Positions 2,824-64,000 are shown, counted from the stretch's first letter. The stretch is 64,000 bases of DNA from Candidatus Forterrea multitransposorum CG_2015-17_Forterrea_25_41 (GCA_009392915.1 CP045477.1:288001-352000), one strand, 5' to 3'. The notes: generated by a model from the letters alone, not told the origin. Numbers and translations: made by a program.

Positions 2824-2885
2824 ATCATTCTTTTTAAGCAACCTTTTTTTTAAATTTTTTAAAAAAAATATAAATGTGATTGTAA

Positions 2886-4340: not shown

Positions 4341-4346
4341 AGACTT

Positions 4347-6164: not shown

Positions 6165-6187
6165 AAACTTTATAAAAAGGATTAATT

Positions 6188-21301: not shown

Positions 21302-21332
21302 AATATTTTTAAAAAAAAAGGTGTGATTAAAT

Positions 21333-23731: not shown

Positions 23732-24727
23732 ATGAAAAAAGAAAATAAAACAATTATTTCTATTAAAGGTTTAAAAAAAACATTTAAAACAAAAGTTACA
23801 AAACCTGGCATGAGTGGTATTTTTAGAAATATATTTTCTCCAGATTATAAATATATAAAAGCTGTTGATAATATTTCTTTAGATATTAAAAAAGGAGAGC
23901 TTGTTTCTTTTATTGGTCCAAATGGTGCTGGTAAATCAACTACTTTAAAGATGCTTTCAGGTATTCTTTTTCCTGATTCTGGAAAAATAAAGATTCTAGG
24001 TAAAGATCCTTCAAAAAAAAGAAAAGAACTTTCTTATGATATTGGAACTATTTTTGGACAGAAACCACAGTTATGGTTTCATCTTCCACCAATAGATAGT
24101 TTTAATTTATTTGCAAAAATTTACGATATTGATCAAACAATCTATAAAGAAAGACTTGATAATTTAATAAATCTTTTTGAAATATCTGATATTATTAATC
24201 AACCTGTAAGAAAATTATCTCTAGGTCAAAGAATGAGGTGTGAGTTTGTTTTAGCTTTACTTCATAATCCAAAAATATTATTTCTAGATGAACCAACTAT
24301 AGGTATGGATATTATTGTTAAAAAAACAATGAGAGAATTGATTAAAAAGATTAATGAAAAGGAAAAAACAACAATTATTTTAACAAGTCATGATATAGGA
24401 GATATTGAAAATATATCAACAAGGCTTGTTATCATTAATCATGGTGAGATTGTTTATGATGGGGATTTTAAAAATATTAAACAAAAATATCTTTCAAAAA
24501 AGTTATTAAAGATTACAACTGAAGATAAGATTGATGAAAAAGATTTTAAAGATTTAACTGTTATAAAAAAATCAAAGTACTATATTGAGTTTGAAATTGA
24601 AACACATAAATTTCCTTTAAAGAAAGTAATTGATTTTTTGTTTACTAAATATAAGATAACAGATATTGGCATAAATGAAATGCCTATTGAAGATGTTATT
24701 GAAGAGATTTATAGAGATCAAAGATGA
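23732..24727 (+). CDS. ABC transporter ATP-binding protein (COG4586-like, with C-terminal extension)
   Basis: Walker A GPNGAGKST, signature LSLGQRMR, Walker B LFLDEPT and an H-loop. Confidence 0.85.
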   Translation: MKKENKTIISIKGLKKTFKTKVTKPGMSGIFRNIFSPDYKYIKAVDNISLDIKKGELVSFIGPNGAGKSTTLKMLSGILFPDSGKIKILGKDPSKKRKELSYDIGTIFGQKPQLWFHLPPIDSFNLFAKIYDIDQTIYKERLDNLINLFEISDIINQPVRKLSLGQRMRCEFVLALLHNPKILFLDEPTIGMDIIVKKTMRELIKKINEKEKTTIILTSHDIGDIENISTRLVIINHGEIVYDGDFKNIKQKYLSKKLLKITTEDKIDEKDFKDLTVIKKSKYYIEFEIETHKFPLKKVIDFLFTKYKITDIGINEMPIEDVIEEIYRDQR

Positions 24728-25524
24728 GCTCACAGTTAAATAAATATTTGTCTATTTCTTTTATTAATATAAAAGAAAGTTTGACATATATCTGGGACAT
24801 AATATTTGGAAAAGTTATATTTATAGCTTTAATTATTTTTGTTTTTGCAAACCTTTGGACAGTTGTTTTTGCATCAAAAGGAGAAGTTATACCTGGTTTT
24901 ACTCTTGCAATGATGGTCTGGTATTTAGTTTTTGGTGAAGCCATAATTACTTCTATTGGAAGATTTGTAAAAGAGGTTGGAGATGATATTAAGAGCGGAG
25001 AGATTGCAAATTATTTAACAAAGCCATACAACTATATAGTTTACAAAATGTTTGTCTCTTTTGGAAAAGGTTTAATTAATTTTACTTTAATACTTATCTT
25101 TGGTGGACTTGTTGCTTATCTTATGGTTGGTGGTGTTGAAATATCTTTAATCTCAATACCTTTTCTATTAATTGTAGCTTTACTTGCAATGCTGCTTAAT
25201 TTAGTAATTGCATCTGTTATAAGTCTTTTTGCTTTCTGGATAGAGGATGCAAGTTCTCTAAATTATATTTATTCAAAGTTTACTTTTATTTTTGGTGGAA
25301 TGATTGTTCCTTTAGAGGTATATCCTCCTTTAGTTGAAAAAATAGCATCATTCTTACCTTTTAGTTATTCTGCATACCATCCTTCAAAATTAGCTTTAAT
25401 TTTTAGTTTTGAATCTTTTTTTAAAGTTTTTCTTGTTCAAATAGCATGGATAAGTTTTTTTATAATAATTTTAATTTTCTTTTATAAATATATAATTAAA
25501 AAAGTGAGTGTTAATGGCGGTTAG
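24724..25524 (+). CDS. ABC-2 family permease
   Basis: Six hydrophobic segments. Translationally coupled (ATGA) to the ATPase gene. Confidence 0.6.
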   Translation: MSSQLNKYLSISFINIKESLTYIWDIIFGKVIFIALIIFVFANLWTVVFASKGEVIPGFTLAMMVWYLVFGEAIITSIGRFVKEVGDDIKSGEIANYLTKPYNYIVYKMFVSFGKGLINFTLILIFGGLVAYLMVGGVEISLISIPFLLIVALLAMLLNLVIASVISLFAFWIEDASSLNYIYSKFTFIFGGMIVPLEVYPPLVEKIASFLPFSYSAYHPSKLALIFSFESFFKVFLVQIAWISFFIIILIFFYKYIIKKVSVNGG

Positions 25525-26308
25525 AGAAATTATTTCAAATTTTAAATTATTTATAGAGTATCAAAAGATTTTCTTAAAGTCAGCCATAGAATACAGGGCT
25601 AATTTTTTACTGTCCACTTTTTTCATGTTTTTAAATGATGTTATTTGGTTATTTTTTTGGTATCTTTTATATTATAAATTAGGAGATATTAATGGATGGG
25701 TCTTTCAAGATTTAATATACATTTATGTTTTTGCAACAATTTCTTTTGGTATTGCAGGTTATTTCTTTGGAAATCATAAAGAAATTGCAGAGCTTGTTGT
25801 TAAAGGAAAATTAGATTTTTATTTAACACTTCCAAAGAAAGATTTAACACATATACTAATATCTAAGAATAGTTGGTTTGATTTAGGAGATCTTTTATTT
25901 GGAATTTTATTACTTATATTTATGGTTTCAGTTACAAAGGTTCCTTTAATATTATTAATGATAATTCCTGGTGTATTAATATTAATTGGTTTTGGTATAC
26001 TTGTAGGTAGTTTATCTTTTTATCTTCAGTCATCAGAGAGCTTTGGTTCAACTCTTTATGAATCACTTATATCTATATCTCTTTACCCTGGTTCAATCTT
26101 TACAGGAGCTACAAAGTTTATAACATTATTTATTCTTCCAGCAGGTTTTATAACAGCTGTTCCTGTTCAGTTACTACATTCTTTTGATTTAACTTGGTTT
26201 ATTTTACTTTTCTTATTCTCAATAGCTTTATTTTTACTTGCTATCTATGTTTTTTATAAGGGATTAAAGAGATATGAGAGTGGAAATCTTCTTTATGTAA
26301 GAATGTAA
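25514..26308 (+). CDS. ABC-2 family permease (second subunit)
   Basis: Multi-TM protein overlapping the previous gene. The track start GTG at 25508 was moved to ATG at 25514. Confidence 0.6.
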   Translation: MAVREIISNFKLFIEYQKIFLKSAIEYRANFLLSTFFMFLNDVIWLFFWYLLYYKLGDINGWVFQDLIYIYVFATISFGIAGYFFGNHKEIAELVVKGKLDFYLTLPKKDLTHILISKNSWFDLGDLLFGILLLIFMVSVTKVPLILLMIIPGVLILIGFGILVGSLSFYLQSSESFGSTLYESLISISLYPGSIFTGATKFITLFILPAGFITAVPVQLLHSFDLTWFILLFLFSIALFLLAIYVFYKGLKRYESGNLLYVRM

Positions 26309-28123: not shown

Positions 28124-29521
28124 ATGAAGGTCTTTTTAATGAATGAAATTGAATTTGATTATGAAAATAAAGAATTTAATGAAATAATTTATAAAATAAT
28201 GTTACATACTATAGAAATATCTGATTTTGATAATTATTTTACTAAAGGTCTTACAAATGAAGATAAAGAAAAAGTATTGACTGAAATAAAAAATTTAGAT
28301 TTTAGTATTATAGCAATTAATGAAGTTATTGTAGAAACTAAAAACTTTTTTAAAAAATATTTAGAATCAGATTTTACAGAATATTTAATTGATTATTTGA
28401 TAGGTTATAAAGAATTAGCACCGATCATGAAAAGTGATGATTATGAAGAAATAATGGTTAATGATTATAATAAAGTATTTGTAATTTCAAGAAAAAATAT
28501 ATATTATAAAACAAATATCGTTTTTGATAGAAGAAGTTTTAATGTTTTTTTAGAATATATTAAAAAAACAATTAATGGTGACTTTAATAAAAGAAAATTT
28601 ATTGATGGTGTACTACCTGATAACTCAAGAATAAATATTGTTTCTAAAGAGATTGCAAGATTTAATGTTATAACTATTAGAAAATTTTTAAGTAAACCAT
28701 TAACAATAGTTGATTTAATTAATAATAATACTTTTAATTATGAAGTTGCAGCTTATTTATGGACTGTAATTGAAGGATTTAATTTAAAACCAGCAAATCT
28801 TTTTATTTGTGGTGGAACAAGTACAGGTAAGACAACTCTTTTAAATATTTTACTTAACTTTGTACATCCAAAAGAAAGAGTTATTTGTGTTGAAGATACT
28901 AAAGAAATAAATACAACTATCTTTGATAATTCTGTAAGTCTTATTAGTGATATTTCTGATCCAGATAGTCTTTATAATATTACTTTAAACATATTAAGAA
29001 TGAGACCAGATAGAATAGTTATTGGTGAAACTAGAGGTAAAGAAGCTAAAGCTTTATTTATGGCAATGGATACAGGGCACCAAGGTTGTATATCTACAAT
29101 TCATGCAAATAATAGTGGAGATTTAATTAATAAATTATTATCTGAACCAATGAATATAGAAGAAAGTTACATTAAATTATTAGACATAATAATTACTTTT
29201 GATAAAAAATATATTGGTAATAAAATGTATAGATATGTTTCTCAAATTTCAGAAATTAGTAGACTTGGAAATATTACATTAAATCACATTTATTCCAATG
29301 ATAATATGGAATTTAGTTCTTCAGTTAATTTTATGAGTTCTCAATTTTTAGAAAAATTATGTAATTATATAAGTATTTCAAAAATAGAACTTCAAATTGT
29401 AATTGATAATAGAATTAAAATACTTAAAAGTATGGTTGATAGAAATATTAAAGATTCTGAAGAAATTAGAAATTTACTTATTGATCCAAGATTTGGTTAT
29501 AAAGAATTATTAAATAAATAA
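28124..29521 (+). CDS. secretion-superfamily ATPase (FlaI/TadA/VirB11-like) with long N-terminal domain
   Basis: Walker A GGTSTGKTT, Asp box VEDTKE, Walker B RMRPDRIVIGETRG and His box HQGCISTIHANN. Confidence 0.8.
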   Translation: MKVFLMNEIEFDYENKEFNEIIYKIMLHTIEISDFDNYFTKGLTNEDKEKVLTEIKNLDFSIIAINEVIVETKNFFKKYLESDFTEYLIDYLIGYKELAPIMKSDDYEEIMVNDYNKVFVISRKNIYYKTNIVFDRRSFNVFLEYIKKTINGDFNKRKFIDGVLPDNSRINIVSKEIARFNVITIRKFLSKPLTIVDLINNNTFNYEVAAYLWTVIEGFNLKPANLFICGGTSTGKTTLLNILLNFVHPKERVICVEDTKEINTTIFDNSVSLISDISDPDSLYNITLNILRMRPDRIVIGETRGKEAKALFMAMDTGHQGCISTIHANNSGDLINKLLSEPMNIEESYIKLLDIIITFDKKYIGNKMYRYVSQISEISRLGNITLNHIYSNDNMEFSSSVNFMSSQFLEKLCNYISISKIELQIVIDNRIKILKSMVDRNIKDSEEIRNLLIDPRFGYKELLNK

Positions 29522-35239: not shown

Positions 35240-35947
35240 TTAACCTTTAAGATATTTTAGTCTTTCTTTTTCTTCAAACCTTTCAATAGAATATCTAAGC
35301 ATAGTCCTTGGCATTTCTTTAAAGTGCTTATCTAAAAAATTAGTTTCTTCTTTTAAATCTCTATTTCCAATCTCTCTTAGCATCCAACCAACAGCCTTAT
35401 GGATTAGATCTTCTTTATCTCTTAAAAGTAGCTTAGAAATTTTTAAACTGTCCAAGAAATAGTTCTTTTTAATAAAATAAAAAGTAGAAATAATAGCAAT
35501 TCTTCTAACAAACAACTTCTCTGACTTTACCCATTTGTAAAGAATTTTTCTTTTTGAAGGATTTTCAAACAAATACCACCCTATAATGTTTGGAGCAGAA
35601 GAGTCAACTAAGTCCCAGTTGTTAACCTTATCTATATTCTTAACATAATAGCGATAAATCTCATCCCTTCCTTTCTTATCTTCAATTTCAAACCTATAAA
35701 CCATTAAAAAAAGAGCTACTTGTCTATGTTCATGCACTTTTGAAGAGATAAGGACACTCAAGTCAGTGATTTTAATTTCTTTAAAGTATTTTTTAGCAAT
35801 ACTTCTTTGTGAAGGAACAGATAACCCTAAGAAAATATCCCCTTCTCCATAATCTCCTTTACCAGTCTTAAAGAATCTTTGAAAGTTAAGACTTTTTTCT
35901 GGATCATAAAAAGAGTCTATTTCTTTTTTAATTTTTTTAACATCCAT
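35240..35947 (-). CDS. DNA alkylation repair protein (AlkD/AlkC HEAT-like repeat family)
   Basis: NNWDLVDSSAPNIIG, HKAVGWMLREIG and MPRTMLRYSIERF match the DNA_alkylation family. Confidence 0.7.
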   Translation of the reverse strand: MDVKKIKKEIDSFYDPEKSLNFQRFFKTGKGDYGEGDIFLGLSVPSQRSIAKKYFKEIKITDLSVLISSKVHEHRQVALFLMVYRFEIEDKKGRDEIYRYYVKNIDKVNNWDLVDSSAPNIIGWYLFENPSKRKILYKWVKSEKLFVRRIAIISTFYFIKKNYFLDSLKISKLLLRDKEDLIHKAVGWMLREIGNRDLKEETNFLDKHFKEMPRTMLRYSIERFEEKERLKYLKG

Positions 35948-51659: not shown

Positions 51660-53900
51660 ATGGATGAAAAAATACCTAGAGGATCTCCTGGACAACTTTA
51701 TAGTTCAATTTCCGTAGAATCCAGAGATTTTTCTTTAGATGAAGATAAACTATCTAAAAAAGTCGAAAATGGATATGTTTTATTTTGTAAAAAAGTATAT
51801 AATCAATTTCCTTCTCTTGGTAACAATACTAAATATGATGAAAAATTACAATCAACAATTGATTTCTTAAAATGGGATTTAAAAGCTGAAGAGTATTTTG
51901 CAGGTTATAAATTTGTAATTTTTGCAGGTATTTTTTTAACTTTTGTAACAGTATTATTATTATATTCTTATCTTCTTCCAACTCTTACAAAAATGTTTGG
52001 AAATGCAATGGTTCCTACAGTTTTTATTTTTGGAGGTCCAATTGTTCTTTTTATTCTAGGAATTGATTCTTTTAAAAATTATCCTCACAAAAAACTTAAT
52101 CTAGAAAAAATATATGCACTAACTTTTGTACCTGAAATCTTAGGGTATATGATAATGTCAATGAAACTTGTTCCAAATCTTGAAAAAGCAATTGAGTTTG
52201 CATCAAGTCATGGTCACGGTAAAATTGCAGATGACTTAAAAACTTTACTTTGGGAAGTAAAGGTTGGAATTAAAACAAGTGTTGCAGAAGCAATAGATGA
52301 ACTTGCTTATAAATGGGGAGATGTTTCTCAAGAATTTAAAAAGTCTTTAATGAAAATAAGGTCTAGTGTTATTGAAATATCTGAATCAAAAAGATATCAA
52401 ATATTAGATCAAACAATGGAAGACACTTTAACCTCTATTAAAGGAAAACTAGAAGAATATGCAAGAGGGCTTTCACAACCTGCAATGGTTATGTTTTATC
52501 TAGGTATTTTACTTCCTTTATTATTAATTATTATATTACCAGTAGGTTCTGCTTTTTCAGATTCAAATCTTGCAAGACCAATTTATTTAATTTTAATTTA
52601 TAATCTAATAATACCTATTGGTTGTTTAATTTTTGCAAGAAAAGTTATAAGAGAAAGACCAATAACATATATTCCTCCAGTTATTCCAGATAATCATCCT
52701 GATCTTCCTGCAAAAAATACAATGGTATTTGGAAGTTTTAAAATAAACATTTATGTTTTATTAATAATTGTTGGAACAATTCTAGTTGCAGGAAGTATTT
52801 TTACACAAGCAACTTTTGGAAAAACAAGATATAATGTTTTACTTTCAGAAGGATATATTCAACAAGGAGAAGATATTTCTCAAGCAGACTTTTTATGTAC
52901 TACAGAAGAACTAGTCTATAAAGCAACAGAACCTAAATTTCAATGTGCTTCTGAAAGAGATTTTTGGCAAAGACCTGAAAACAATACTACTCCTTTTTTC
53001 ATAATTTATGGATCTTTATTAACAATTAGTTTTTTAGTTTCAATTTATTTATATGGTAAAAATATTTACAAAAGAAGAGTTCAAGTTAATTCTCAAAAAA
53101 TGGAAGATGAGTTTAAAGATGCATTATATGTAATTGCAAGTAGATTAGGTGAAAATAAACCAATTGAAGAGGCCTTAAATCATACTAAAAATTTCCTTCC
53201 AAATTCTTTAATTGCACAAAATATTTTTGCAAGAACTTTAGATAATATTAGAATAATGGGTCTTAATTTAAAAGCTTCTTTGTTTGATCCTAATTATGGA
53301 GCTTTAAAAAATAATCCTTCTAGGTTAATTAATAGTGCAATGCTATTAGTCGTAGACTCTGTTCAATTAGGTGTATCTGTAGCTGCAAAAACATTAATGT
53401 CCTATTCAATGCAACTTAGAAATACTGATGAAGTATCTAAAATGCTTACAAGTTTAATTGCAGATATTACTGGAACATTAAATAGTATGGCAAAATTTAT
53501 TGCACCAATTGTTCTTGGTATTACAACTGCTCTTCAAAAAATTGTAATGTCAACATTAAACTCTATATCTTCAAGTAATGTTATGCAAGATATGGAAAAA
53601 ATGGTTCAAGGTATTGGTGAAGGTGCTACTGCTGCAGGACTTGGAAGTGTAAATATAGGTGGTGTTTCAGGTTTAGGAACCTCCATTGATCCTACAAAAA
53701 TAGCACAGTTTGCAAGTGCAACAACATTTTTAATAATTGTTGCAATATATGTTATACAGATTGTAATAATTATTGTATATTTTACAACAATGATAGAACA
53801 AGAAAACATTATCTTAGCAAAGGTAAGAATTGCACAAACTTTACCAATTGCAACAATTTTGTTTATATTAACAACAATTTTATCCAATTTTTTATTTTAA
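51660..53900 (+). CDS. FlaJ/TadC-like type IV pilus platform membrane protein (two T2SS-F domains)
   Basis: Two helical cytoplasmic domains (about 160-300 and 520-660), each followed by TM bundles. 746 aa. Confidence 0.6.
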   Translation: MDEKIPRGSPGQLYSSISVESRDFSLDEDKLSKKVENGYVLFCKKVYNQFPSLGNNTKYDEKLQSTIDFLKWDLKAEEYFAGYKFVIFAGIFLTFVTVLLLYSYLLPTLTKMFGNAMVPTVFIFGGPIVLFILGIDSFKNYPHKKLNLEKIYALTFVPEILGYMIMSMKLVPNLEKAIEFASSHGHGKIADDLKTLLWEVKVGIKTSVAEAIDELAYKWGDVSQEFKKSLMKIRSSVIEISESKRYQILDQTMEDTLTSIKGKLEEYARGLSQPAMVMFYLGILLPLLLIIILPVGSAFSDSNLARPIYLILIYNLIIPIGCLIFARKVIRERPITYIPPVIPDNHPDLPAKNTMVFGSFKINIYVLLIIVGTILVAGSIFTQATFGKTRYNVLLSEGYIQQGEDISQADFLCTTEELVYKATEPKFQCASERDFWQRPENNTTPFFIIYGSLLTISFLVSIYLYGKNIYKRRVQVNSQKMEDEFKDALYVIASRLGENKPIEEALNHTKNFLPNSLIAQNIFARTLDNIRIMGLNLKASLFDPNYGALKNNPSRLINSAMLLVVDSVQLGVSVAAKTLMSYSMQLRNTDEVSKMLTSLIADITGTLNSMAKFIAPIVLGITTALQKIVMSTLNSISSSNVMQDMEKMVQGIGEGATAAGLGSVNIGGVSGLGTSIDPTKIAQFASATTFLIIVAIYVIQIVIIIVYFTTMIEQENIILAKVRIAQTLPIATILFILTTILSNFLF

Positions 53901-53914
53901 AAAAATGAGTATAA

Positions 53915-54433
53915 ATGTTTATAAAAAATAATAAAGGACAAGCTTTTGAAGCATATCAATTATTGATTGCATTTATTATAGCAACTGCTATTTTAGGAAT
54001 TATTGTAATGATGATTTCAAAAACAAATAGTCAAGCAATAATTATTAGTAATCAAAAGATTGAAGATGCTTTTACTTCTGCAATAAATAGTCCTGTAATT
54101 AGTATGGAAAAACCTTTTGTTGTAAAAGATGTTTTAATAACAGGTATTTTAAGTTATGAAAGATATGAACAAATTTCAGGTATTGAAGAAGGGTGCTTTG
54201 GGTTTATTGTAGGGCCTGGAGTTACTTTACAACCATATGGAGTTATTGTTGATAAAAAATATTTAAAAACAAATGTTTATTTTTCATGTGGTTTAAGAAA
54301 CATGAGTGGTCTTCCTGATGAAATTTATCCAGGTGTATCTGGAAATAGGCCTTTTCAAGATGATCCTTCAAGGGAATGTGAAAGATTATTTTGTGTAATG
54401 TATATTAATAAAACTCCAGAAGTTTTAAATTAG
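53915..54433 (+). CDS. type IV pilin-like protein (class III signal peptide), Cys-containing
   Basis: MFIKNNKGQAFEAYQLLIAFIIATAILGIIVMMI has a KG|QAFE prepilin cleavage motif and a hydrophobic helix. Six Cys in the globular part. Confidence 0.6.
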   Translation: MFIKNNKGQAFEAYQLLIAFIIATAILGIIVMMISKTNSQAIIISNQKIEDAFTSAINSPVISMEKPFVVKDVLITGILSYERYEQISGIEEGCFGFIVGPGVTLQPYGVIVDKKYLKTNVYFSCGLRNMSGLPDEIYPGVSGNRPFQDDPSRECERLFCVMYINKTPEVLN

Positions 54434-54449
54434 ATTAAAAGAAGTAATT

Positions 54450-54953
54450 ATGAATAAAAATAAATGGACAAGAAATATTAAATATTTTTTAATTGCTATA
54501 ATAATACTTGTTTTTGGATATTTTTTTGGAATAATTATTTTAGGTATAATTGCGTTAATTATTGTTTTAATGAGTATTTTATTTTTAATATCTTTATTAT
54601 TTAATAAATCATTAGATTTTTTCTTAAATAAAAAAGTAAGATTGTTTATAACAATGTTTTTTTCTCTTGCAATATCTTATGGATTTATTATGTTATTTTG
54701 GAAAAGTATAGATTCTATTTTAAATGTAGTTTTAAAAATTTCTGTTATCTGGGCAATTACTGCTTTTATTTTTGGATCTCTTTGGAATATTTTTGTTATT
54801 AGAAAAAGAGTAGTTTATAAAAATAAAGTTTTTGATTATAAAGAAAAAGATTTAAAGATTGGAATTCAGTTTAAAGATATTATATTTATGATTTTAATTC
54901 CTTTAATCTTTAGTTTAACATTTAGTATTTTAAAAGGAATTTTAATAATATAA
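54450..54953 (+). CDS. polytopic membrane protein inside pilus locus
   Basis: 167 aa with 4-5 TM segments. No peptidase Asp motifs. Confidence 0.4.
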   Translation: MNKNKWTRNIKYFLIAIIILVFGYFFGIIILGIIALIIVLMSILFLISLLFNKSLDFFLNKKVRLFITMFFSLAISYGFIMLFWKSIDSILNVVLKISVIWAITAFIFGSLWNIFVIRKRVVYKNKVFDYKEKDLKIGIQFKDIIFMILIPLIFSLTFSILKGILII

Positions 54954-55019
54954 TAACATTTAAATATCTTTTGGACTAAAAAATTAATAAATATTATATT
55001 ATTGAGGTGAAAAATAATT

Positions 55020-55553
55020 ATGAAATTAATATCTTTAAAAAATAGTAAAGGTCAAGCTTTCTCAACATTTCAGTTATTAATTGCTGCTGTTGTTGCTTTA
55101 GCTTTATTAGGTGTATTAATGCCAATTATTGGTGGAATTAATCCTGGTACAGACCGTTTAGTTGATGCTTTAAAAGAAAGAATTAATACTCAACAAGATC
55201 AACCAGGAACTTTAACCTTAACTGATGAAATAAAAGTATCTTCAAAAGGAGATCCGTATGTTTCTGCAGCAACAATTACAGAAGGAACAGGACTAGCTGA
55301 TGATCAAGTAAAATTTATGTTAAATGGATATGAAAATGATTTTGCAGTTAACGAAGGTAATAATGTTTTAGAAGTTAGAGCTTCAAGTTCAGTAACATAT
55401 CAATTTGGAGTTTTATGTCATAGAAATTTTGAAGAACTTGAAAACTCTATAAATGATTATTCATCAATTATTAAAGAAACAGAAGATCTTCCTACATTTG
55501 ATGAAGAAAACGATAATGTAAGAGTATGTGTTGTTGTTCCAGTAAAAAGATAA
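55020..55553 (+). CDS. type IV pilin-like protein (class III signal peptide)
   Basis: MKLISLKNSKGQAFSTFQLLIAAVVALALLGVLM. GAGGTGA Shine-Dalgarno. Confidence 0.65.
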   Translation: MKLISLKNSKGQAFSTFQLLIAAVVALALLGVLMPIIGGINPGTDRLVDALKERINTQQDQPGTLTLTDEIKVSSKGDPYVSAATITEGTGLADDQVKFMLNGYENDFAVNEGNNVLEVRASSSVTYQFGVLCHRNFEELENSINDYSSIIKETEDLPTFDEENDNVRVCVVVPVKR

Positions 55554-55576
55554 AATTAGTTTAAAAAAGATAATAT

Positions 55577-55777
55577 ATGAAAACAATTAAAAAGAAAATT
55601 TTAATGATCCTAAAAGATCAAAAAGGACAAACAGAGTCTAATACAGTTTTCTTTTTAATTGTTGTCGCTATTGTTGCAATAATTTTGATTGCTGTTGTAA
55701 AACCAATGTTTAATAAATCAGTAAAAACTTCAGCAAAACAAGCAGCACTTCCTTCTCAAACGATACCTGTTGAATAA
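55577..55777 (+). CDS. short pilin-like protein
   Basis: KDQKGQTESNTVFFLIVVAIVAIILIAV with only about 25 aa beyond the helix. Confidence 0.5.
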   Translation: MKTIKKKILMILKDQKGQTESNTVFFLIVVAIVAIILIAVVKPMFNKSVKTSAKQAALPSQTIPVE

Positions 55778-55836
55778 ATAATTTTATTTAAAAAAGAAAA
55801 CTATTTTAAATACTTCTTATAATATCTTTATAATAT

Positions 55837-56418
55837 ATGTTATTAAAGATATCAAATAAAGCACAAATGAGTGCACCTTTTGAATTATTAGTTGCAATTA
55901 TAGTTATGATTTTTGTAGTTGCTGCAGGAAGCTATGCTCTTGCAAACTTAAATGAAAATACTTGTCTTGGAAATAAAAGACAAGAAATGAGTAATCTTGT
56001 TTCTTCTTTAAGAGAAGTTGTTTTAGGATCAGATCTAGCATACAGAACAATTGATTTTTCAACAAAAGCATGTTATAATGAAAATAATGAACAAACATAT
56101 CTAAGAGTGGTTGATAATGATAGAGATGTTTGTGAAAGATTTTGTGGGTCTGGAACAAGCTGTATTCTTTTACAATACCAGTATGTTGATGAAGTTAAAC
56201 TTGATTATAAATATCCAATAGATCCTGTTTGTACATATCTTCCTACAAATTTAGTTTTTGGTTCAGATACAGATTGTGGAATAGACCCAGATGTTACTAA
56301 TGAAGAAACTATTGATCCTACTGAAGATAATTCAAATATAAAAAGAGGAACATATAAAATATATAAACTATCAAATTCAGGTCCTTTATATAAAGTTTGT
56401 ATGATAAAAATAAGGTGA
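55837..56418 (+). CDS. pilin-like protein, cysteine-rich (10 Cys)
   Basis: NKAQMSAPFELLVAIIVMIFVVAAG N-terminus (A at -1). Globular part has CxxxC/CxxC pairs. Confidence 0.5.
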   Translation: MLLKISNKAQMSAPFELLVAIIVMIFVVAAGSYALANLNENTCLGNKRQEMSNLVSSLREVVLGSDLAYRTIDFSTKACYNENNEQTYLRVVDNDRDVCERFCGSGTSCILLQYQYVDEVKLDYKYPIDPVCTYLPTNLVFGSDTDCGIDPDVTNEETIDPTEDNSNIKRGTYKIYKLSNSGPLYKVCMIKIR

Positions 56419-56426
56419 TTTTTTAA

Positions 56427-57074
56427 ATGTTTGATTTTGCTCTTTCAAAAATAAATATGTTAATTTTTGTAACTGCAATAGCTGTAGTTGTAATTTTTTT
56501 TATGAATACCTTAAATGATACTCTTAAAACAAGACAAAGTTATGAACTTGCATTTAAAATAGGTAAAGAAATCAAGACTGTAATTGATTCAGATAGTTAT
56601 TGTTCAATAAAATTTATTGAAGTTCCTAAAACAATAAGAATTAGAGAAGGAAGTAGTCTTTCTGGAATTACTTATAAGCTAGGATTAAAAAGTTATATGC
56701 AACTTGATAATCAATCACTAATTATTTATTTAACTGATTTAAAAGAAAAAAATATTCTTGGAGCTTATAATTTAGATTATAATGGAACAATTAATTTTTT
56801 TTCTTCAGAATATAATAACACAGAATATAGATTTAATAATGAAGGTGAAGAAGAAATAGTTTATTACCCTAGAGAAGAAAATTCAAATACTACAAGTTTA
56901 TTAATTCTTAAAAATATTGAAAACAATGAAAATAATTATTTTGTAATACCATGTGAAAAAAAATATGGTGAATATAGTTGTAAGAGATATGTTTGTCAAG
57001 ATAATGATGATATAAAAGATTTTTCTTGTTTAAATGATTTCTGTAGCACATCTATGGAGGAAAATAATACATGA
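56427..57074 (+). CDS. pilin-like / pilus-associated protein, Cys-rich C-terminus
   Basis: N-terminal hydrophobic helix MLIFVTAIAVVVIFF without a KGQ motif. C-terminal CEKKYGEYSCKRYVCQDNDDIKDFSCLNDFC. Confidence 0.4.
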   Translation: MFDFALSKINMLIFVTAIAVVVIFFMNTLNDTLKTRQSYELAFKIGKEIKTVIDSDSYCSIKFIEVPKTIRIREGSSLSGITYKLGLKSYMQLDNQSLIIYLTDLKEKNILGAYNLDYNGTINFFSSEYNNTEYRFNNEGEEEIVYYPREENSNTTSLLILKNIENNENNYFVIPCEKKYGEYSCKRYVCQDNDDIKDFSCLNDFCSTSMEENNT

Positions 57075-57592
57075 ATCAAAAAGGATTTATAGGATCAATT
57101 GGAGATGATCTTCCAAGTCTTATTCCAATCTTTTTAGGTTTAGTTGTATTTTTTTCTGTATTCTTAGGTGTATTTAATGATTATAATGCAAAAAATAGAG
57201 TTTATACTTTAAATCAAGAAGCTGTTGAAATTTCTATGCAACTTAAATCAGATCCTGTTATTGTTAGTTATGATCATTTTATTGAAAAATGTAATGAGAT
57301 TAATACTCCAAAAAACTGGAATGCTTTTTTAGTTGATCTGCCACAAAATACTGAAGATTTTAAGTCTATAACTTTAGAAGATATTTATGATGATTATCAA
57401 AATAATGTAATAAAAATAGAAAATCCTGATTTTGGCACAGAAAATTATTTTATCTGTAATGAAGATGAAGAGAACTTAGATCAATTAAAAGATACTTCTA
57501 AAAATATAATTAATTTTTTATATCCTGTAGTTTTACAAAACCAGGATGGTTATTCAACAACTGCAAGATTATATATTTTAATATGGGAATAA
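57071..57592 (+). CDS. pilin-like / pilus-associated protein
   Basis: MNQKGFIGSIGDDLPSLIPIFLGLVVFFSVFLGVF. Overlaps the previous stop (ATGA). Confidence 0.4.
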   Translation: MNQKGFIGSIGDDLPSLIPIFLGLVVFFSVFLGVFNDYNAKNRVYTLNQEAVEISMQLKSDPVIVSYDHFIEKCNEINTPKNWNAFLVDLPQNTEDFKSITLEDIYDDYQNNVIKIENPDFGTENYFICNEDEENLDQLKDTSKNIINFLYPVVLQNQDGYSTTARLYILIWE

Positions 57593-57593
57593 A

Positions 57594-58343
57594 ATGAAAC
57601 TGAAATTAAAAAATTATAAAGGCCAAGCTGCAATGACAGATTCTTTGTTTTTTTTAACAATAATTGTAGCTTTGTGTGTTTTATTATTTCAATTTTCTGC
57701 AACATATGGAGAAAGAGTAGATCTTGCAATTAATAATTTATATTTTAAAGAATACACAAATTCAAGTCTTAAGACAATTTATTATACAGATATACCCTTA
57801 GATAATACTAAAGATATAGAGGATAGTTTAGAAACTGATTATTTAATTACATCTTTAAAAAGTGATTATTTAAGTGATGAAAAAATAGGTTATAGTGATA
57901 TTAATTCTTTAAATAAAGATGATGTTAAGGATCTTTCAAAATATAATTTATTCCATACAATTAAATCTTTAATGTATGCACTTCCAAATTATGATTATAT
58001 TTATTATATACAAGAATCAAGTGGACAAAAATTTATTTATTTTATGCTAAAAATAAATAATTTTGAAGATAATGAGCTTGAACAACTTTATTATTTATGT
58101 GAACCTACATCTATTAATCCAGTAAGAAATGTTGTTCAGAGAACAAATAAAATATATTCATCTTCTTCTCCTCAAATATATCAAACAAAAGATACTGGAG
58201 AAGTAAGAGCAACTTCTAATTTAACAATATGGCCTTCAACAAGCAGTATTAATAAAGAATATCTAGAAGGAAGATTAGACTCTCTTACTGATAATGAAAT
58301 TGAAAATATAACTAATTTAAAATGTAAAGAATATATTGAATAA
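57594..58343 (+). CDS. type IV pilin-like protein (class III signal peptide)
   Basis: MKLKLKNYKGQAAMTDSLFFLTIIVALCVLLF. Confidence 0.6.
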   Translation: MKLKLKNYKGQAAMTDSLFFLTIIVALCVLLFQFSATYGERVDLAINNLYFKEYTNSSLKTIYYTDIPLDNTKDIEDSLETDYLITSLKSDYLSDEKIGYSDINSLNKDDVKDLSKYNLFHTIKSLMYALPNYDYIYYIQESSGQKFIYFMLKINNFEDNELEQLYYLCEPTSINPVRNVVQRTNKIYSSSSPQIYQTKDTGEVRATSNLTIWPSTSSINKEYLEGRLDSLTDNEIENITNLKCKEYIE

Positions 58344-58348
58344 GAAGA

Positions 58349-59002
58349 CTAAAACTTTAAACCTAAGTCATCTTCATTATCTTCTTCAAGATCTAAAGAA
58401 TCAGAATCATCGTCCAATAAATCTTGTATATCAGAATCTTCTTTTTTCTTAGTTTTCTTTTCTTCTTTAACATTTTTTTTAGAAGGTTCTTCTTTCTTTT
58501 TTGAAGTTTCTTTTTTTGGTGCTAATTTATTTTCATTTCTTATTTCTTCAGATTCAAGTTGATTAAAAACATCTTCAACTAAAGATTTCATATTGTCTGT
58601 TTCAACTATTTCTCCTGATTCATCTTTAGAGGCTCTATAATGTTTACTACTTTTAATAGTTTCTTGAATTTCTTCTTTTTTAAAATTATTTAAATTATCA
58701 TCATTACTTACTTGAGAATAAATAGCATCAGCAATACTATCTATGTCAGGAGCTACAATATCTGAAATGTTTCTTAAAACTTTTTGAATCTTTTCATCTT
58801 TATGTACAATTAGTTTTTTCTTTTGACCAACATCTAAAAGACTTTTAATATTATCCTCTTCTTCACTGTTATCTTGATAAGTTTTAGAAGAATAATTATG
58901 TTTTTCTTCATGTCCAAAAGGTACATCTGAATAAACAATTTCTCCATTTATATATTTTCTAAAATGTCTTCTTTCTCTTCTAGGTACTTTTTCAATTTCC
59001 AT
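58349..59002 (-). CDS. acidic/lysine-rich hypothetical protein with poly-acidic C-terminal tail (...DDDSDSLDLEEDNEDDLGLKF)
   Basis: The ORF-track start at 59074 adds a hydrophobic leader overlapping the promoter. The ATG at 59002 (MEIEKVPRRERRHF) is more plausible. Confidence 0.4.
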   Translation of the reverse strand: MEIEKVPRRERRHFRKYINGEIVYSDVPFGHEEKHNYSSKTYQDNSEEEDNIKSLLDVGQKKKLIVHKDEKIQKVLRNISDIVAPDIDSIADAIYSQVSNDDNLNNFKKEEIQETIKSSKHYRASKDESGEIVETDNMKSLVEDVFNQLESEEIRNENKLAPKKETSKKKEEPSKKNVKEEKKTKKKEDSDIQDLLDDDSDSLDLEEDNEDDLGLKF

Positions 59003-59117
59003 ATTTAATTTTCTCTTTAATTTTCTTATTTTTATATAAATTAATATATATAATAAGCCTTTTAAATCTTTCAATTAATATATATTATAGATATATTATA
59101 TTTTTGGGGATAAATTA

Positions 59118-59618
59118 ATGGAAAACATATTTCAAACAATCTTAAATTATTTATTATTTATTTTAAAGTTAGTTGGTGTTTCAATACTTTTCTCAATTCC
59201 TTTCTTTATAATTGTAAAAATATTCAAATCTAAATTTATTAATTTAAGAAAGAAATTTAGTGTTATTGGTTCTCTTTTTATAATTATTTATATAATTTCA
59301 TACATTATTTTATTATTAATTTATTTTTTACCAATTATTTCAACTTTTTATCAAGATTTAACATTTTGGCAATCAGTAGGTTTTATTTTCTATCATTTAA
59401 TAAGATTAATTTTAATTAACATAATAATTTCAGGAGTTATTCTTTCCTTTTCATTTATAACTCTTGCAATTTATGATAAGTCTGAAACAAATAAAAAGAA
59501 ACCTTATCATAATCTTAATTTATTTAAAAGTCTAATAATTACAAATATAATTATATTTTTTATATTATTAGTCTTTCCAAAATTAATAGCATTATTAGTT
59601 TATTTAATATATATATAA
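59118..59618 (+). CDS. membrane protein (4-5 TM)
   Basis: 166 aa, hydrophobic. GGGGA Shine-Dalgarno. Immediately upstream of the giant ORF. Confidence 0.45.
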   Translation: MENIFQTILNYLLFILKLVGVSILFSIPFFIIVKIFKSKFINLRKKFSVIGSLFIIIYIISYIILLLIYFLPIISTFYQDLTFWQSVGFIFYHLIRLILINIIISGVILSFSFITLAIYDKSETNKKKPYHNLNLFKSLIITNIIIFFILLVFPKLIALLVYLIYI

Positions 59619-59631
59619 AAAAAGAGAAACT

Positions 59632-62600
59632 ATGAAAACAAAAAGACTTTGGGCAATATTTTTTTTAATATTAATGATAAATGGAGTTTTTGCATCTACA
59701 ATAGATCCAAACAGAGTATTTTCAACTGAAGATACATCTTATTATTTTGATGATGCTATTCCAATTAATTATACAGATGAACCTATAAACTATACTCAAG
59801 ATAAAGTTATTTCAGAATGTTACACAGAAGAGCTTTCTCCTGAAGCTGTAGAAAATATTTGGAATGAGATTTTAGTTAATGGTTTTAAAGCTGATTTAAT
59901 AACAAGTGATCAACCTGCAAACTTAAATAGAGAAACATTAAAAGCAAATGAAGTTATAATTACAGACAAAGATACAAAATCAGGAGATGTTGTAGGAAAA
60001 ACAGAAATTCCTGATAAAATAATGGATCCTTTAGAAGTTCCAACTATTTTAGGTCAAGTATGTTATGGTCCTTTTTCAAGTGGACTTGATCTTGATAGTA
60101 CCCTAAGAGTTGGAAGATGTGCTGGTGGAGACCAAGCAGCTTGTTATCTTGAAGGAGAAGGATTATTTAGACAAAATGGAAGTTATGGTTTTATTGATCA
60201 AACTTTTTCTGTAAGTAAAGATTTTTTAGATATGTTAGGTCTTAAAAAATTAGAAGAAGTTTCAAATGAATTAATTGACCCAGAGTTAGATTATGATACA
60301 AATGTTGATTTAGGTTTATTTTCTGATATGTCTTATGAAGAACTTGCAGAGTTTAGAAAAAGTCAATTTCAAGATAGTAATTTAACTGAAATAGATATTA
60401 AAAAAATGGAATTAGTTTTAGATAAAGCTATTGAAAACAGTATGTTTACTGATTCTTTTAATGCAAGTATGGAAAGCACTTGTAATTCTGATAATTGTTA
60501 TATTAACATGTATTCTCTTTTTGACAAAGTTTTTAATCAATATTATTCTGCTGATATGGTATTTACTTCAGCATCTCCTGTTCTTTGGAAATTTACTGGA
60601 AAAATATTTAGAAATGTACCAAATAAACTTGGAGCTCAAAAATTAATTGCATCTGATAAGATTGGTGGAATAAGAGGTAAAAATGGTTTTTTAGATAATT
60701 TTTTAAATAAAGATATGAGTGCAGTAAGTTCTGCAGTACAAACCTATAAATATTCAAAGATTACAAAAAACATTGATGATTATGCTGCTAAACTTGCAAA
60801 AAGTAATGACAATATAATCAAGAATATTAATAGATATAACATGAAACCAGAGTTTGATAAATATGTAAATGCTTTAAACTCTAAAAAGAATGCAGACACA
60901 ATTAAAAATGAATTCTTTAAAGATGGAGCTTTTGCAAAAATGAATAAACCTCAACAAAGAGTGTTCATGGAATCTGTTCTTGAATATCAAAACAATATTA
61001 GAACAGTTAGAATGGTACAAGATTTTACAACTGATAATTTAAAAAATACTTTAAAAGAACCTCTTGAAAATTTATTTAATAAATCTAAAACAATGGAAGA
61101 CTTTTATCAATCTTTAACAAAAGAAGAATATGATCTTTTACTTGAAGAAACAAAAAGATTAAATGGTCTTAATAAATCATTTTCAACATTTACTGAAAAT
61201 AAATTTAAATGGGATGATGGTGCTGATAATATCACTCTTTTAAAAGAAAGAGGAAAAATAATTAATGATGAAGAAGTTTTATTAAATAAAGTAAGACTTA
61301 AAAATGAAGTAACTTCAACAGAACTTACAGGATCTTCTAAATTTGGAGATATTATTTCTGAAAATAAAGTTTCTCCTTTCCAAACTAAAAAAATAACTGT
61401 TAATTTTAAAGATGGTCCAAGTGAGGTTGAAGTAATTATTCCTTTTAAAGAAAAAATAAGTGATACTTCAACTATGCTTAATTATAATGATATAATATAT
61501 AACAAAAAACCAGATGTATTAATAGAATATGTTGCAAAAGATGGAACTGCAAAAAAAGTGAGAGGCTCTGTAATTGATATTGGAGATGTTGATCCTGGTA
61601 AACAAATAAATATGAGAGATATTAAAGATACTGCAGTTCCTGATGCAGAACTTTCAAAATATGGAATTAATCCTTTAGAAGTATCTTATGGTTATTTACA
61701 AGAACTTGGAATTAAAAAAATAAAAGATGCAGAAATAGTAACTGATGGTGTCGTAAGTGTTTTAAAAGACCAAGGATGGAGTACAGGAAGAGGATTAAGT
61801 TATATAAATCAAAGAATGAAACAACAAACTGTAACTCAATGGGATAAAAGAGGATTTAATATAATGTCAGATTCTGCAAAAGCTTATCTTTATAATTTTG
61901 GATATTGGCAATTTAAAACAGCTGGTTCAACTATATTTGGTGGAGCTTTTGATAGATATAGTATGTTTAGAATACCAGAAACATATACTTCTATTATTTT
62001 TAAACATGGTGAAAGTGGAGATATATACAATGATTCTTATATAGATTTCTTTGCAAATGATGGTTCTGATCAAGGAGATCTTTTTATGGATTATTTTAAT
62101 TCAATTATATTTTGGATGGTAAATCTTCCTAAAGGTGCTTTAGAAAACACAGAGTGGGAAACAACACAAGGTTTTTCAAACTGGATAACAGAACTAACTG
62201 AAGGACATATAAGAAGAAGTTCTACAGATAATATTGCAATATTAACTGATGCAATGAACAATAATTGTTCAACAACTTCTTGTCATATAAAAGTTGGAGA
62301 CTCTTCTCTTCTTGAAGAAGTTACAAGAAGTAAATCTATGGATGCAAATAATTCAACATCTACAAGTCTTAAGAAAAATATTGAAGTTAATTATGCAACT
62401 GGAAATGCAATAAAAACAACAAGTTATATTTTAGAAAACACAAGTGAAGAAAACTTTGAAGAAGAAGGACAAACATTAATTGCATTTTCTCATCATACAG
62501 ATTATGATGGTTCTCTTGCAGGTTTTAACTCTACAGATTCAGTAAATCTTTTACAATCAATTAACGAAGAAGAAACTTGTTCTGATAAACTTAAAAATTT

Positions 62601-64000
62601 AGAAGTCATGGGAATACCAATAGGTTGGACAAACCAAATAACAGGAAAATCATATAGAGCAGGTGCTGTTGCAGCTGGTTTTTCAAATATTGTTTATTAT
62701 TCTTTAAGTGTTCCTCAACACAGAGTAGTTTTAGGAGCAATTTTTGGTGATATTTTACCACAAGTTGTAATTGTTCCAGAAATTTATAATTGTGTAGATC
62801 ATGAAGAAGGTTATTATTCACATTTCTTTGTTGCCTCTGAAGAATATGAAAGAATTGAAAAAGATCCAAAAAATAAAGTTGGAGATGCAATTTCAAAAGG
62901 AGCAGATTCTGTTGAAAAGAGTTTAACAAATATTACAAAGAACACAGAACTTCAAGAATCAATTTCAAAAACAACACAAGAAGTAAAACAATTTGCTGAA
63001 ACTGAAATTAAAGATAATCCAATTATGCAATCAAGAATAGAAACACAAGGTAATACTTCTGGATCAATGAATGCTAAACTTTTCTTCCTTGAAATTGGAG
63101 AAAGTTCAATGTGTAGAGCAAGTGGTTATAATGATAAAGGTGTTGAACATTTAGTTGATTCTAAAACAGGAGAAACTTTAGTTGTTGATAAAGAAGAAGG
63201 TGTTGTTGAAATTGTTGATAAAGATGGAAATGTTAAAGAAATAATTTCTTCAAAAAATAAAGATTGGGTAAGACTAATGGCAACTAACTTAGGAATTCCT
63301 GCAAAAGTAATTCCTCATAGTCTTTCATATATCCCTGTACCTGACACAAATACTCCTTTGTTTAATATTGATGTTTATGGTAATCTAAAGATAGATGATG
63401 CTGAATTTTTAAGTTGTTTAAAAAGAAATTACTATGAACAAACTGGTCTTGAAATGAGTGGTAATACTTTAACAGAATATTTAGGTTCTGTAAAACAAGT
63501 AATCACAACAAATAATTTAAACCCAGATAGTCAATATGACATAATACCAAAAGGAATGAATAGTTCAGCAGAAATAATAGCAGAAGGAACTCCAAGAAAA
63601 ATAGCTTCTGGTGAATCTGCAAGAATAAATGTTCTAGGAAACAGAACTACAAAATTATATCCTATTGAAGGAAAAGAAGTCACTCTTGGTAAAAATATTT
63701 CTGTTCAATTTGAAAGAGGACAATTAATCTATAATGGAGAAAAGAATAGTTATATTATGTGGGTTGAACAAACCTATGTAATGCATCAATCTGAAATAAA
63801 AGGAATGGATGTTGATCCTATAAAAGAAACTAATCCTGAAACTGGTTGTGAAGAAGATGCCTTTGAAATTAGTGTTTCACCAGATACTTCTAACCCTGAA
63901 GCTGTTAAAAAGTCAGAAAATATGAATAAAGCTTTAGAAAAAGTTGGACCATTTAAGATGTTTGATACACCTACAAAAACATTTATTTTCTATACAACAG
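59632..64000 (+). CDS. giant secreted/cell-surface protein, at least 1456 aa (3' end beyond window)
   Basis: ATG at 59632 after AAAGAGAAAC. Signal peptide MKTKRLWAIFFLILMINGVFAS. Frame 1 is open without a stop to the window edge by manual translation. The protein is Cys-containing and Asn/Thr-rich. It is absent from the ORF track only because it lacks a stop in the window. Confidence 0.7.
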   Translation, partial: MKTKRLWAIFFLILMINGVFASTIDPNRVFSTEDTSYYFDDAIPINYTDEPINYTQDKVISECYTEELSPEAVENIWNEILVNGFKADLITSDQPANLNRETLKANEVIITDKDTKSGDVVGKTEIPDKIMDPLEVPTILGQVCYGPFSSGLDLDSTLRVGRCAGGDQAACYLEGEGLFRQNGSYGFIDQTFSVSKDFLDMLGLKKLEEVSNELIDPELDYDTNVDLGLFSDMSYEELAEFRKSQFQDSNLTEIDIKKMELVLDKAIENSMFTDSFNASMESTCNSDNCYINMYSLFDKVFNQYYSADMVFTSASPVLWKFTGKIFRNVPNKLGAQKLIASDKIGGIRGKNGFLDNFLNKDMSAVSSAVQTYKYSKITKNIDDYAAKLAKSNDNIIKNINRYNMKPEFDKYVNALNSKKNADTIKNEFFKDGAFAKMNKPQQRVFMESVLEYQNNIRTVRMVQDFTTDNLKNTLKEPLENLFNKSKTMEDFYQSLTKEEYDLLLEETKRLNGLNKSFSTFTENKFKWDDGADNITLLKERGKIINDEEVLLNKVRLKNEVTSTELTGSSKFGDIISENKVSPFQTKKITVNFKDGPSEVEVIIPFKEKISDTSTMLNYNDIIYNKKPDVLIEYVAKDGTAKKVRGSVIDIGDVDPGKQINMRDIKDTAVPDAELSKYGINPLEVSYGYLQELGIKKIKDAEIVTDGVVSVLKDQGWSTGRGLSYINQRMKQQTVTQWDKRGFNIMSDSAKAYLYNFGYWQFKTAGSTIFGGAFDRYSMFRIPETYTSIIFKHGESGDIYNDSYIDFFANDGSDQGDLFMDYFNSIIFWMVNLPKGALENTEWETTQGFSNWITELTEGHIRRSSTDNIAILTDAMNNNCSTTSCHIKVGDSSLLEEVTRSKSMDANNSTSTSLKKNIEVNYATGNAIKTTSYILENTSEENFEEEGQTLIAFSHHTDYDGSLAGFNSTDSVNLLQSINEEETCSDKLKNLEVMGIPIGWTNQITGKSYRAGAVAAGFSNIVYYSLSVPQHRVVLGAIFGDILPQVVIVPEIYNCVDHEEGYYSHFFVASEEYERIEKDPKNKVGDAISKGADSVEKSLTNITKNTELQESISKTTQEVKQFAETEIKDNPIMQSRIETQGNTSGSMNAKLFFLEIGESSMCRASGYNDKGVEHLVDSKTGETLVVDKEEGVVEIVDKDGNVKEIISSKNKDWVRLMATNLGIPAKVIPHSLSYIPVPDTNTPLFNIDVYGNLKIDDAEFLSCLKRNYYEQTGLEMSGNTLTEYLGSVKQVITTNNLNPDSQYDIIPKGMNSSAEIIAEGTPRKIASGESARINVLGNRTTKLYPIEGKEVTLGKNISVQFERGQLIYNGEKNSYIMWVEQTYVMHQSEIKGMDVDPIKETNPETGCEEDAFEISVSPDTSNPEAVKKSENMNKALEKVGPFKMFDTPTKTFIFYTT

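Follow-up and report, generated by a model that had tools for sequence, protein, structure and literature searches.

DPANN archaea that have been brought into culture mostly live in attachment to other cells, by means of molecules that are largely uncharacterized, and no member of the Iainarchaeota is known to have been cultivated. Archaeal type IV pilus loci frequently encode large proteins with a signal peptide, a C-terminal transmembrane (TM) segment and conserved Cys residues, described as “S-layer-like” or adhesin components (Makarova, Koonin & Albers 2016, PMC4858521). The loci of DPANN archaea have been reported to combine an ATPase, TadC and “specific surface proteins” with pilins that cannot be recognized as such (Makarova et al. 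2019, PMC6393860). A gene that compares closely with these descriptions begins at position 59632 of a 64,000-nucleotide stretch of Candidatus Forterrea multitransposorum CG_2015-17_Forterrea_25_41 (GCA_009392915.1, CP045477.1:288001-352000), which was analyzed as a whole and is called the window below. What can be observed directly is the giant gene, together with its architecture, the family to which it belongs and its conserved place downstream of TadC-like and pilin genes. Both the gene and the family are genuine and lack annotation, but the kind of protein that they represent has already been described. With moderate confidence, the product is taken to be a Sec-exported, disulfide-stabilized, C-terminally anchored surface protein that works with a DPANN-specific type IV pilus-like system.

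The gene occupies 59632..64000 on the plus strand and runs off the window. A first-pass annotation had proposed a single uninterrupted reading frame here, and translation in frame 1 indeed gives 1456 codons with zero stops. At the base composition of the window (A 0.377, T 0.381, G 0.134, C 0.109; G+C 24%), any codon drawn at random has a probability of 0.092 of being a stop, and 1456 open codons in a row would arise by chance with a probability of ~1e-61. The two shorter open reading frames (ORFs) listed within it lie outside this frame, as the first-pass annotation had stated: that at 60431-60646 uses frame 2, and that at 62606-62929 reads along the minus strand. A long frame can also result from an assembly chimera or from the fusion of unrelated ORFs, a danger that the annotation itself had named. 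Nothing was found in favor of such an artifact. Window positions 51660-64000 show 0 mismatches over 12,341 positions with the metagenome contig Ga0100390_10000002 (663,598 bp; Joint Genome Institute, JGI 3300008002), the same 1629-amino-acid (aa) gene is present on an independent contig from a second metagenome, and orthologs of 1617-1763 aa are collinear with it from end to end in >20 metagenome-assembled genomes (MAGs). Because of the identical contig, the second metagenome and the end-to-end orthologs, the frame is accepted as a real gene, neither misread nor chimeric, and the artifact, whose probability is negligible, is rejected. The identical contig also supplies the complete gene (L001:10515-15404), of which residues 1-1456 fall within the window and 173 lie past its edge; the full length of 1629 aa agrees with the earlier minimum of 1456. 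The window also contains genes for RNA polymerase subunits B and A, both split, and for an EF-2 of archaeal type, and its Rfam and tRNA scans were empty. The source organism is a DPANN archaeon (Iainarchaeum) with a genome well under 1 Mb.

Both ends of the protein carry signals for its localization. The N-terminus, MKTKRLWAIFFLILMINGVFA followed by STID, has the n-, h- and c-region layout of a Sec signal peptide as judged by eye, its hydrophobicity peaks at a Kyte-Doolittle value of 2.17 over residues 6-24, and F20 and A21 are invariant among orthologs. The Sec-type signal peptide seen in the first pass can accordingly be placed at residues 1-21 (59632..59694, plus strand), with predicted cleavage between VFA and S. 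The C-terminus, which ends in GGSDRGTLNLPLTPEKILPFTLYILVIMASFMYLFSSRNQKFKKR, consists of a G/S-rich linker, the proline motif NLPLTPE, one TM helix (Kyte-Doolittle 2.17) and a basic tail. Because of this C-terminal helix and its basic, cytoplasmic tail, the protein is read as membrane-anchored and not freely secreted. The earlier description of a secreted protein therefore holds for the export signal, but not for simple secretion. From these sequence features a type I topology is predicted, in which ~1570 residues are extracellular. This ectodomain is acidic (isoelectric point, pI, 4.7; ~177 kDa). The protein has exactly 14 Cys residues, among them two CxxxxC pairs, and all are invariant in 12 close orthologs (alignment A1), which fits an extracellular protein stabilized by disulfides.

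Word-indexed searches recover only 14 relatives. When a profile of residues 586-1629 is used in an exhaustive HMMER search, 204 cluster representatives are found at E <= 1e-3, 98 of them at E <= 1e-30. Most members have 1300-1700 aa (range about 1300-1750), and the match reaches their own C-terminus. Among ten representatives checked, five have source names, namely Candidatus ainarchaeum, Candidatus Diapherotrites, Candidatus Micrarchaeota (PIO06610.1) and, twice, “archaeon”; every protein name given among the ten is “hypothetical protein”. The close relatives come from MAGs called Candidatus Iainarchaeum or “ainarchaeum”, Diapherotrites or plain “archaeon”, and the sequence from isolate STF1_257 is 99% identical. 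The suspicion that the protein is lineage-specific was thus sound, but it is no single orphan, since at least 204 sequence clusters occur in Iainarchaeota and in MAGs labelled Micrarchaeota. In a 36-sequence alignment (14-46% identity), conservation is 0.22-0.24 over positions 301-700 and climbs to 0.46-0.51 over 1401-1600. This gradient suggests that the exposed distal half varies while the membrane-proximal module is constrained. One MAG, AMR_MDS_2622, has the gene on two contigs (L022:134-2299 and L026:6832-12172) with identical C-terminal sequence, and a run of N interrupts the L026 copy. This duplicate looks like assembly redundancy and not like a pair of paralogs, and the family accordingly appears to be single copy.

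The position of the gene associates the family with pilus-like loci. The first-pass annotation had put it directly after a pilus locus, and class III pilin-type genes behind a TadC/FlaJ-like protein do precede it in the window. When the surroundings of homologs in related MAGs are inspected, as had been advised, this arrangement recurs: in 19 of the 20 loci that have enough upstream sequence, the giant gene is preceded by one for a TadC-like protein and by 2-6 others whose products have class III signal peptides. All 16 Iainarchaeum-type loci with upstream sequence have the order TadC-like protein, class III pilins, divergent RRERR protein, small TM protein and giant gene. Because the family nearly always ends a type IV pilus-like cluster, the giant protein is most likely a surface partner of the pilus machine, with which it may be physically coupled.

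Several observations weigh against such a partnership. Close relatives share syntenic housekeeping neighbors too (aminoacyl-tRNA synthetase, DHH, SpoU), so that part of the linkage is mere shared ancestry. One family member, in locus L028 of a Micrarchaeota-labelled MAG, has no adjoining pilin cluster and is the only such case. The only T2SSE ATPase in the window (465 aa; 28124-29521, plus strand) is encoded 22 kb from the TadC-like/pilin cluster. No recognizable domain in Pfam, NCBIfam, PHROGs or PDB links the protein to pili or adhesion. Pfam, NCBIfam and PHROGs gave only scattered chance-level matches for the giant protein, 14 aligned relatives and 6 distant members, and when the sequences in PDB were searched, neither the protein by itself nor the profiles A2, A3 and A7 gave anything below E 0.26. 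Two AlphaFold2 models, built on a shallow 14-sequence alignment, are both poor (mean predicted local distance difference test, pLDDT, 56.9 and 52.8), and fold searches with them returned nothing significant. The first-pass reader had likewise recognized no domain family. Codon adaptation of the gene is unremarkable (codon adaptation index rank 19 of 55), although as a proxy for expression it is uninformative at the third-position GC of 9% in this genome.

The shared housekeeping genes and the isolated member in L028 also favor a rival explanation, in which the protein is a general envelope protein such as a stalk, a spacer or a surface enzyme, and its pilin neighborhood is inherited gene order with no shared function. 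Conserved acidic and His motifs (YIDFFANDGSDQGDLF, FSHHTDYDG and CVDxEEGYY) could form a binding or catalytic site in such a protein. However, the invariant motifs match no catalytic signature (HEXXH, GDSG and similar), and the domain scans detected no enzyme family. As flanking housekeeping genes are shared by close relatives, the distant loci are the informative cases. There, beside members with 14-25% identity and in genomes of 33-59% GC, the TadC/pilin cluster recurs even though the downstream neighbors have changed completely. Locus L029 (51% GC) keeps the TadC-like protein and pilins of the RRGQ type. Loci L030 (35% GC) and L032 (59% GC) encode a 755-761-aa T2SSE ATPase directly upstream of a 706-770-aa TadC-like protein, after which come six or seven small proteins, most of which have a pilin signal of the [KR]GQ type. 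One or more divergent genes are next, and the giant gene closes the set; just upstream of it, L032 encodes a small plus-strand membrane protein. Loci L031 and L033, although truncated upstream by contig ends, still have the proximal genes, and a further T2SSE/T2SSF set lies just downstream in L030 and L031. Given this persistence, inherited gene order without shared function is considered unlikely.

If the giant protein is a partner of the pilus-like machine, several steps can be proposed for how it reaches and occupies the surface. Sec would export it, and the signal peptide would be cut after residue 21. The ~1570 residues outside the cell would fold there, probably stabilized by up to seven disulfides, and the C-terminal TM helix with its basic cytoplasmic tail would tether them. 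The membrane-proximal module and the invariant LP-x-x-PE motif would probably contact membrane machinery or the small membrane protein that may be co-transcribed. The variable N-terminal half would point outward, probably beyond the surface layer (S-layer), as a contact or adhesion surface toward the environment or a partner cell. The role in adhesion or host interaction that had been raised in the first pass is plausible and would be compatible both with the pilus-locus context and with the pattern of a variable distal and a conserved proximal part.

Between its signal peptide and its membrane anchor, the ectodomain can be divided into several regions, all encoded on the plus strand. Residues 22-350 (59695..60681) form an N-terminal Cys-containing region with C63, C144, C163, C171, C284 and C289, including a CxxxxC pair, all invariant in A1. 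The AlphaFold2 model lacks confidence over this region, and the only confident parts are residues ~371-711 and a beta-rich part at ~1240-1540. The former (60742..61764; pLDDT ~70-93) is modelled as a helical bundle followed by a small beta domain; it is the most variable part of the family (conservation 0.22-0.24) and gave no fold match in PDB (best E 0.93). The latter marks the best-conserved, membrane-proximal module, which starts at 63349, continues to the window edge at 64000 and extends past it (pLDDT 70-89 at residues 340-640 of the modelled fragment). Its Foldseek matches, from a low-confidence model, are weak and beta-propeller-like (probability <=0.38, TM-score <0.1).

Several motifs within the ectodomain are invariant. 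An acidic motif, YIDFFANDGSDQGDLF, at residues 803-818 (62038..62085) is unchanged from Y803 to F818 in alignments A1, A3 and A4 and is still discernible in the distant member P0024 as YIDFFSNTGSDEGDMF; a role in metal binding is only a guess. The motif FSHHTDYDG at residues 952-960 (62485..62511) is invariant in A1 and A2 and, used as a search pattern, retrieved 21 GTDB loci. Further invariant motifs are CVDxEEGYY (1054-1062) and NLGIPAKV (1219-1226). Residues 1010-1051 (62659..62784) form a moderately hydrophobic, G/A/P-rich segment with a Kyte-Doolittle peak of 1.71, and distant members have comparable segments; inside an ectodomain it could be a buried core, a re-entrant loop or a membrane-interacting loop. 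When the protein was compared with itself by BLASTP, no internal repeats appeared, whereas typical giant adhesins have them. Enrichment of N-glycosylation sequons was considered and rejected, with 19 observed against 17.6 +/- 3.9 in shuffled sequences.

The C-terminal end of the protein suggests a second way in which it could reach its final place. Directly before the TM helix, members of the family share the consensus [FL]-N-[LI]-P-S-[LVWF]-P-E, and a basic cluster follows the helix. Among the 150 relatives listed, a hydrophobic C-terminal stretch is present in 134 and the strict pattern [LIVMF]-P-x(1-3)-P-[ED] in 84. The proline of the LP motif, P1595, belongs to the mere 10 columns that stay invariant across all 36 aligned sequences, and a G/S-rich linker stands ahead of the motif. 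This tripartite layout of a short proline motif, which here reads LPLTP, a TM helix and a basic cluster is also that of the sortase and archaeosortase substrates (LPXTG, PGF-CTERM, PEF-CTERM, PEP-CTERM). By analogy, the end could be cleavable, and the ectodomain could be transferred to lipid, envelope or pilus. The giant protein differs from these substrates, however, in that no curated model (LPXTG, PGF-, PEF-, PEP-, VPXXXP-CTERM and others) matches it: ten C-terminal tails searched against NCBIfam at E up to 10 hit no CTERM model except LAVTG at a chance-level E of 0.19. Among 534 ORFs from the 33 loci and the window, with ~10% of this genome covered, the LP-x-x-PE-type motif was moreover found in this one family alone, whereas genuine sorting signals tend to be carried by several proteins of a genome. 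Sortase, archaeosortase and rhombosortase genes were found in none of the loci. The neighboring 166-aa membrane protein was rejected as a sorting enzyme, as it has no conserved Cys/His/Arg set of catalytic type and is neither sortase- nor archaeosortase-like.

In some bacteria, CPBP proteases have a role in sorting, and an Rce1-like CPBP protease gene (PF02517) does lie 5-8 kb downstream of the giant gene, but in some relatives only (L003:19906-20556, L005:10604-11224 and equivalents in L007, L012 and L014). It adjoins the gene for a ~370-aa exported protein and is absent from the distant loci L030-L032. It offers a lead for the C-terminal motif, but one that is only weakly linked to the giant gene. 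A cleavable sorting signal is judged quite unlikely, and the motif could instead be a cleavage site or a hinge. There is a slim chance that [FL]-N-[LI]-P-S-x-P-E, the helix and the basic tail constitute an undescribed archaeal C-terminal sorting signal, through which the cleaved giant protein would be passed covalently to lipid or to a pilus-like filament. If so, it would be an archaeal counterpart of the sortase-assembled tip adhesins, for cell contact by DPANN archaea with small genomes.

In being large and acidic (pI 4.7) and in combining a signal peptide with a TM helix and a basic tail at the C-terminus, the giant protein also resembles several archaeal S-layer glycoproteins. It could therefore be the lattice-forming S-layer glycoprotein of the Iainarchaeota, and its apparently single copy, its wide occurrence in the clade and the term “S-layer-like” used by Makarova et al. 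for such pilus-locus proteins (PMC4858521) would agree with this. The S-layers described for these archaea, however, are assigned to other proteins. In Micrarchaeum harzensis, proteomics identified a ~101 kDa PF05123 protein, SLP_Mh, as the most abundant and S-layer-forming one (10.1101/2021.04.28.441871). DPANN S-layer proteins have been reported to be orthologous MSTP-like proteins, and the table of that structure-based survey assigns the 1039-aa protein A0A2G9N319, from a Diapherotrites archaeon, to the S-layer of the Iainarchaeota (10.1101/2024.05.28.596244 and its supplement). These MSTP-like (PF05123/TIGR01564) proteins are exported, acidic envelope proteins of the same organisms, as is the giant protein, but they have ~980-1040 aa as against 1629, belong to a different family and have no domain in common with it. 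Nor does the SLP_Mh preprint (10.1101/2021.04.28.441871) report any counterpart to the C-terminal TM anchor of the giant protein. Neither the giant protein nor the 14 relatives and 6 distant members match PF05123 (S_layer_N), PF05124, the MSTP-like type of TIGR01564/TIGR01567 or Ig-like arrays. The sequons, which are not enriched, likewise disfavor an S-layer glycoprotein, and codon usage, though uninformative here as a proxy for abundance, is unremarkable. Given the other S-layer proteins, the lack of a shared domain and the occurrence of the giant family in a Micrarchaeota-labelled MAG, the giant protein is probably distinct from the S-layer protein proper, and its identity with the lattice-forming protein is very unlikely.

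Another S-layer-like surface protein is encoded elsewhere in the window, in the plus-strand region 18900-22583. There, two genes for MMPL/SecDF-like half-transporters (18900-20078 and 20075-21301) are followed by that of a 416-aa protein, which has a signal peptide, CARDB/DUF11-type beta-sandwich matches that stay below the curated thresholds and, at its C-terminus, a TM helix with a basic tail; the LP-x-x-PE motif is absent from it.

The cluster that precedes the giant gene occupies 51660 to 59618, with one gene reading in the opposite direction. Its first gene (51660..53900, plus strand) encodes a 746-aa polytopic TadC/FlaJ-like platform protein, recognized by a Pfam T2SSF match at E 0.0054 that is below the curated cut-off. 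Five plus-strand genes have class III signal peptides of the KGQ/A and KAQ/M types, the slash standing at the signal boundary. The first (53915..54433), MFIKNNKGQ/AFEAYQLLIAFII, has the same motif in orthologous loci. The best-conserved pilin-like protein of the cluster (55020..55553), with NSKGQ/AFSTFQLLIAAVVALALLG, shares its motif with L030. Three others are a 66-aa protein at 55577..55777 (DQKGQ/TESNTVFFLIVVAIV) and the proteins of 55837..56418 (SNKAQ/MSAPFELLVAIIVM) and 57594..58343 (NYKGQ/AAMTDSLFFLTIIVAL). Also on the plus strand are a 167-aa polytopic membrane protein (54450..54953), whose position is conserved across loci, and two proteins with N-terminal hydrophobic helices (56427-57074 and 57071-57592), candidate minor pilins or assembly factors. 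The second of these carries a conserved GxIGDDLPSLIP, and GPIGDD[LI]PS[LI] is also found in L029, L030 and L032.

The two genes closest to the giant gene are those that the first-pass annotation had described, a small membrane protein ahead of it and a divergent acidic, K/E-rich protein. The former, a 166-aa four-TM protein (59118..59618, plus strand), ends 13 nucleotides upstream of the giant gene; its 13 orthologs always occupy this position, and it is probably a co-transcribed partner. Locus L031 has a 174-aa counterpart with the same FP-x-L ending, and L029, L032 and L033 have a ~80-aa two-TM protein with a KKYPK-x-P loop at the same position. Homology of the 166-aa protein to the ~80-aa proteins of the distant loci was considered and is unsupported (hhalign probability 20%).

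The divergent gene (58349..59002, minus strand) encodes a 217-aa acidic, K/E-rich cytoplasmic protein, the length being called from L002; it starts at the ATG at 59002, and the ORF list makes it too long by starting it from a TTG at 59074. Its ends are invariant across the 10 orthologs of alignment A6 (31-64% identity), with RRE[RK]RxYR...G-x-I-x-Y at the N-terminus and D-[DE]-L-G-L-K-F at the C-terminus, joined by a low-complexity K/E linker. Proteins at the same position in the distant loci L030 and L031 start in an RRxRRFYR-like manner, and that of L031 has a C-terminal zinc ribbon. The acidic tail with its G-L-x-F is reminiscent of the C-terminal tails of ribosomal stalk P proteins.

A few other genes stand apart from this cluster. 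In L028, a second and unrelated giant ORF of 1956 aa with a signal-peptide-like start (1954-7824, minus strand) lies 2 kb upstream of the family member, where no called gene is listed. The T2SSE gene of the window is followed by a gene for a 96-aa membrane protein. In the minus-strand ORF 35240-35947, third-position GC is 0.23, as against ~0.09 elsewhere in the window, and codon adaptation is at its lowest (0.52). In two membrane-protein genes that follow an ABC ATPase (24724-26308, plus strand), third-position GC is raised to 0.16. Both the ORF and these genes could be foreign or recently acquired.

Among other described systems, the bacterial type IV pilus adhesins PilY1 and PilC, together with the DUF2341 proteins of Methanococcus pilus loci, resemble the giant protein in having >1000 aa and in being encoded beside minor-pilin-like genes. 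Its beta-rich C-terminal region, with the propeller-like matches, and its invariant acidic loop motif are further points of likeness. It nevertheless matches neither PF05567 nor DUF2341, and the propeller signal is not significant. PilY1 also has no TM anchor, is soluble after export and is carried by minor pilins, whereas the giant protein has a TM anchor and a basic tail. The SPEARE proteins of the Nanohaloarchaeota, which reach several thousand residues and have been proposed to act in cell-cell contact, are likewise very large, exported DPANN proteins; they have recognizable protease, adhesion and nuclease domains, while the giant protein has neither a recognizable domain nor repeats. Viral relatives were not found.

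A surface partner of the pilus-like machine, as favored here, would give a concrete candidate for the outward-facing part of the DPANN apparatus. The family can now be described by its full-length architecture, by the C-terminal motif as a signature and by a conserved set of genomic partners (ATPase, TadC-like protein, pilins and small membrane protein), which is useful for annotation and for choosing targets for cryo-electron tomography and proteomics; current ideas are not overturned. The closest comparison remains that with the large proteins of archaeal type IV pilus loci (PMC4858521). It shares with them the signal peptide, the one TM helix at the C-terminus and the conserved Cys residues, and it too is encoded with a TadC-like protein, many fast-evolving pilins and, in L030 and L032, an ATPase. 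That class is descriptive and not a homologous family, and the giant family matches no searchable Pfam or NCBIfam model derived from arCOGs. The gene fits the class on every testable feature, namely locus, signal peptide, TM helix and Cys residues, and the family differs from it by an invariant juxtamembrane LP-x-x-PE motif of its own.

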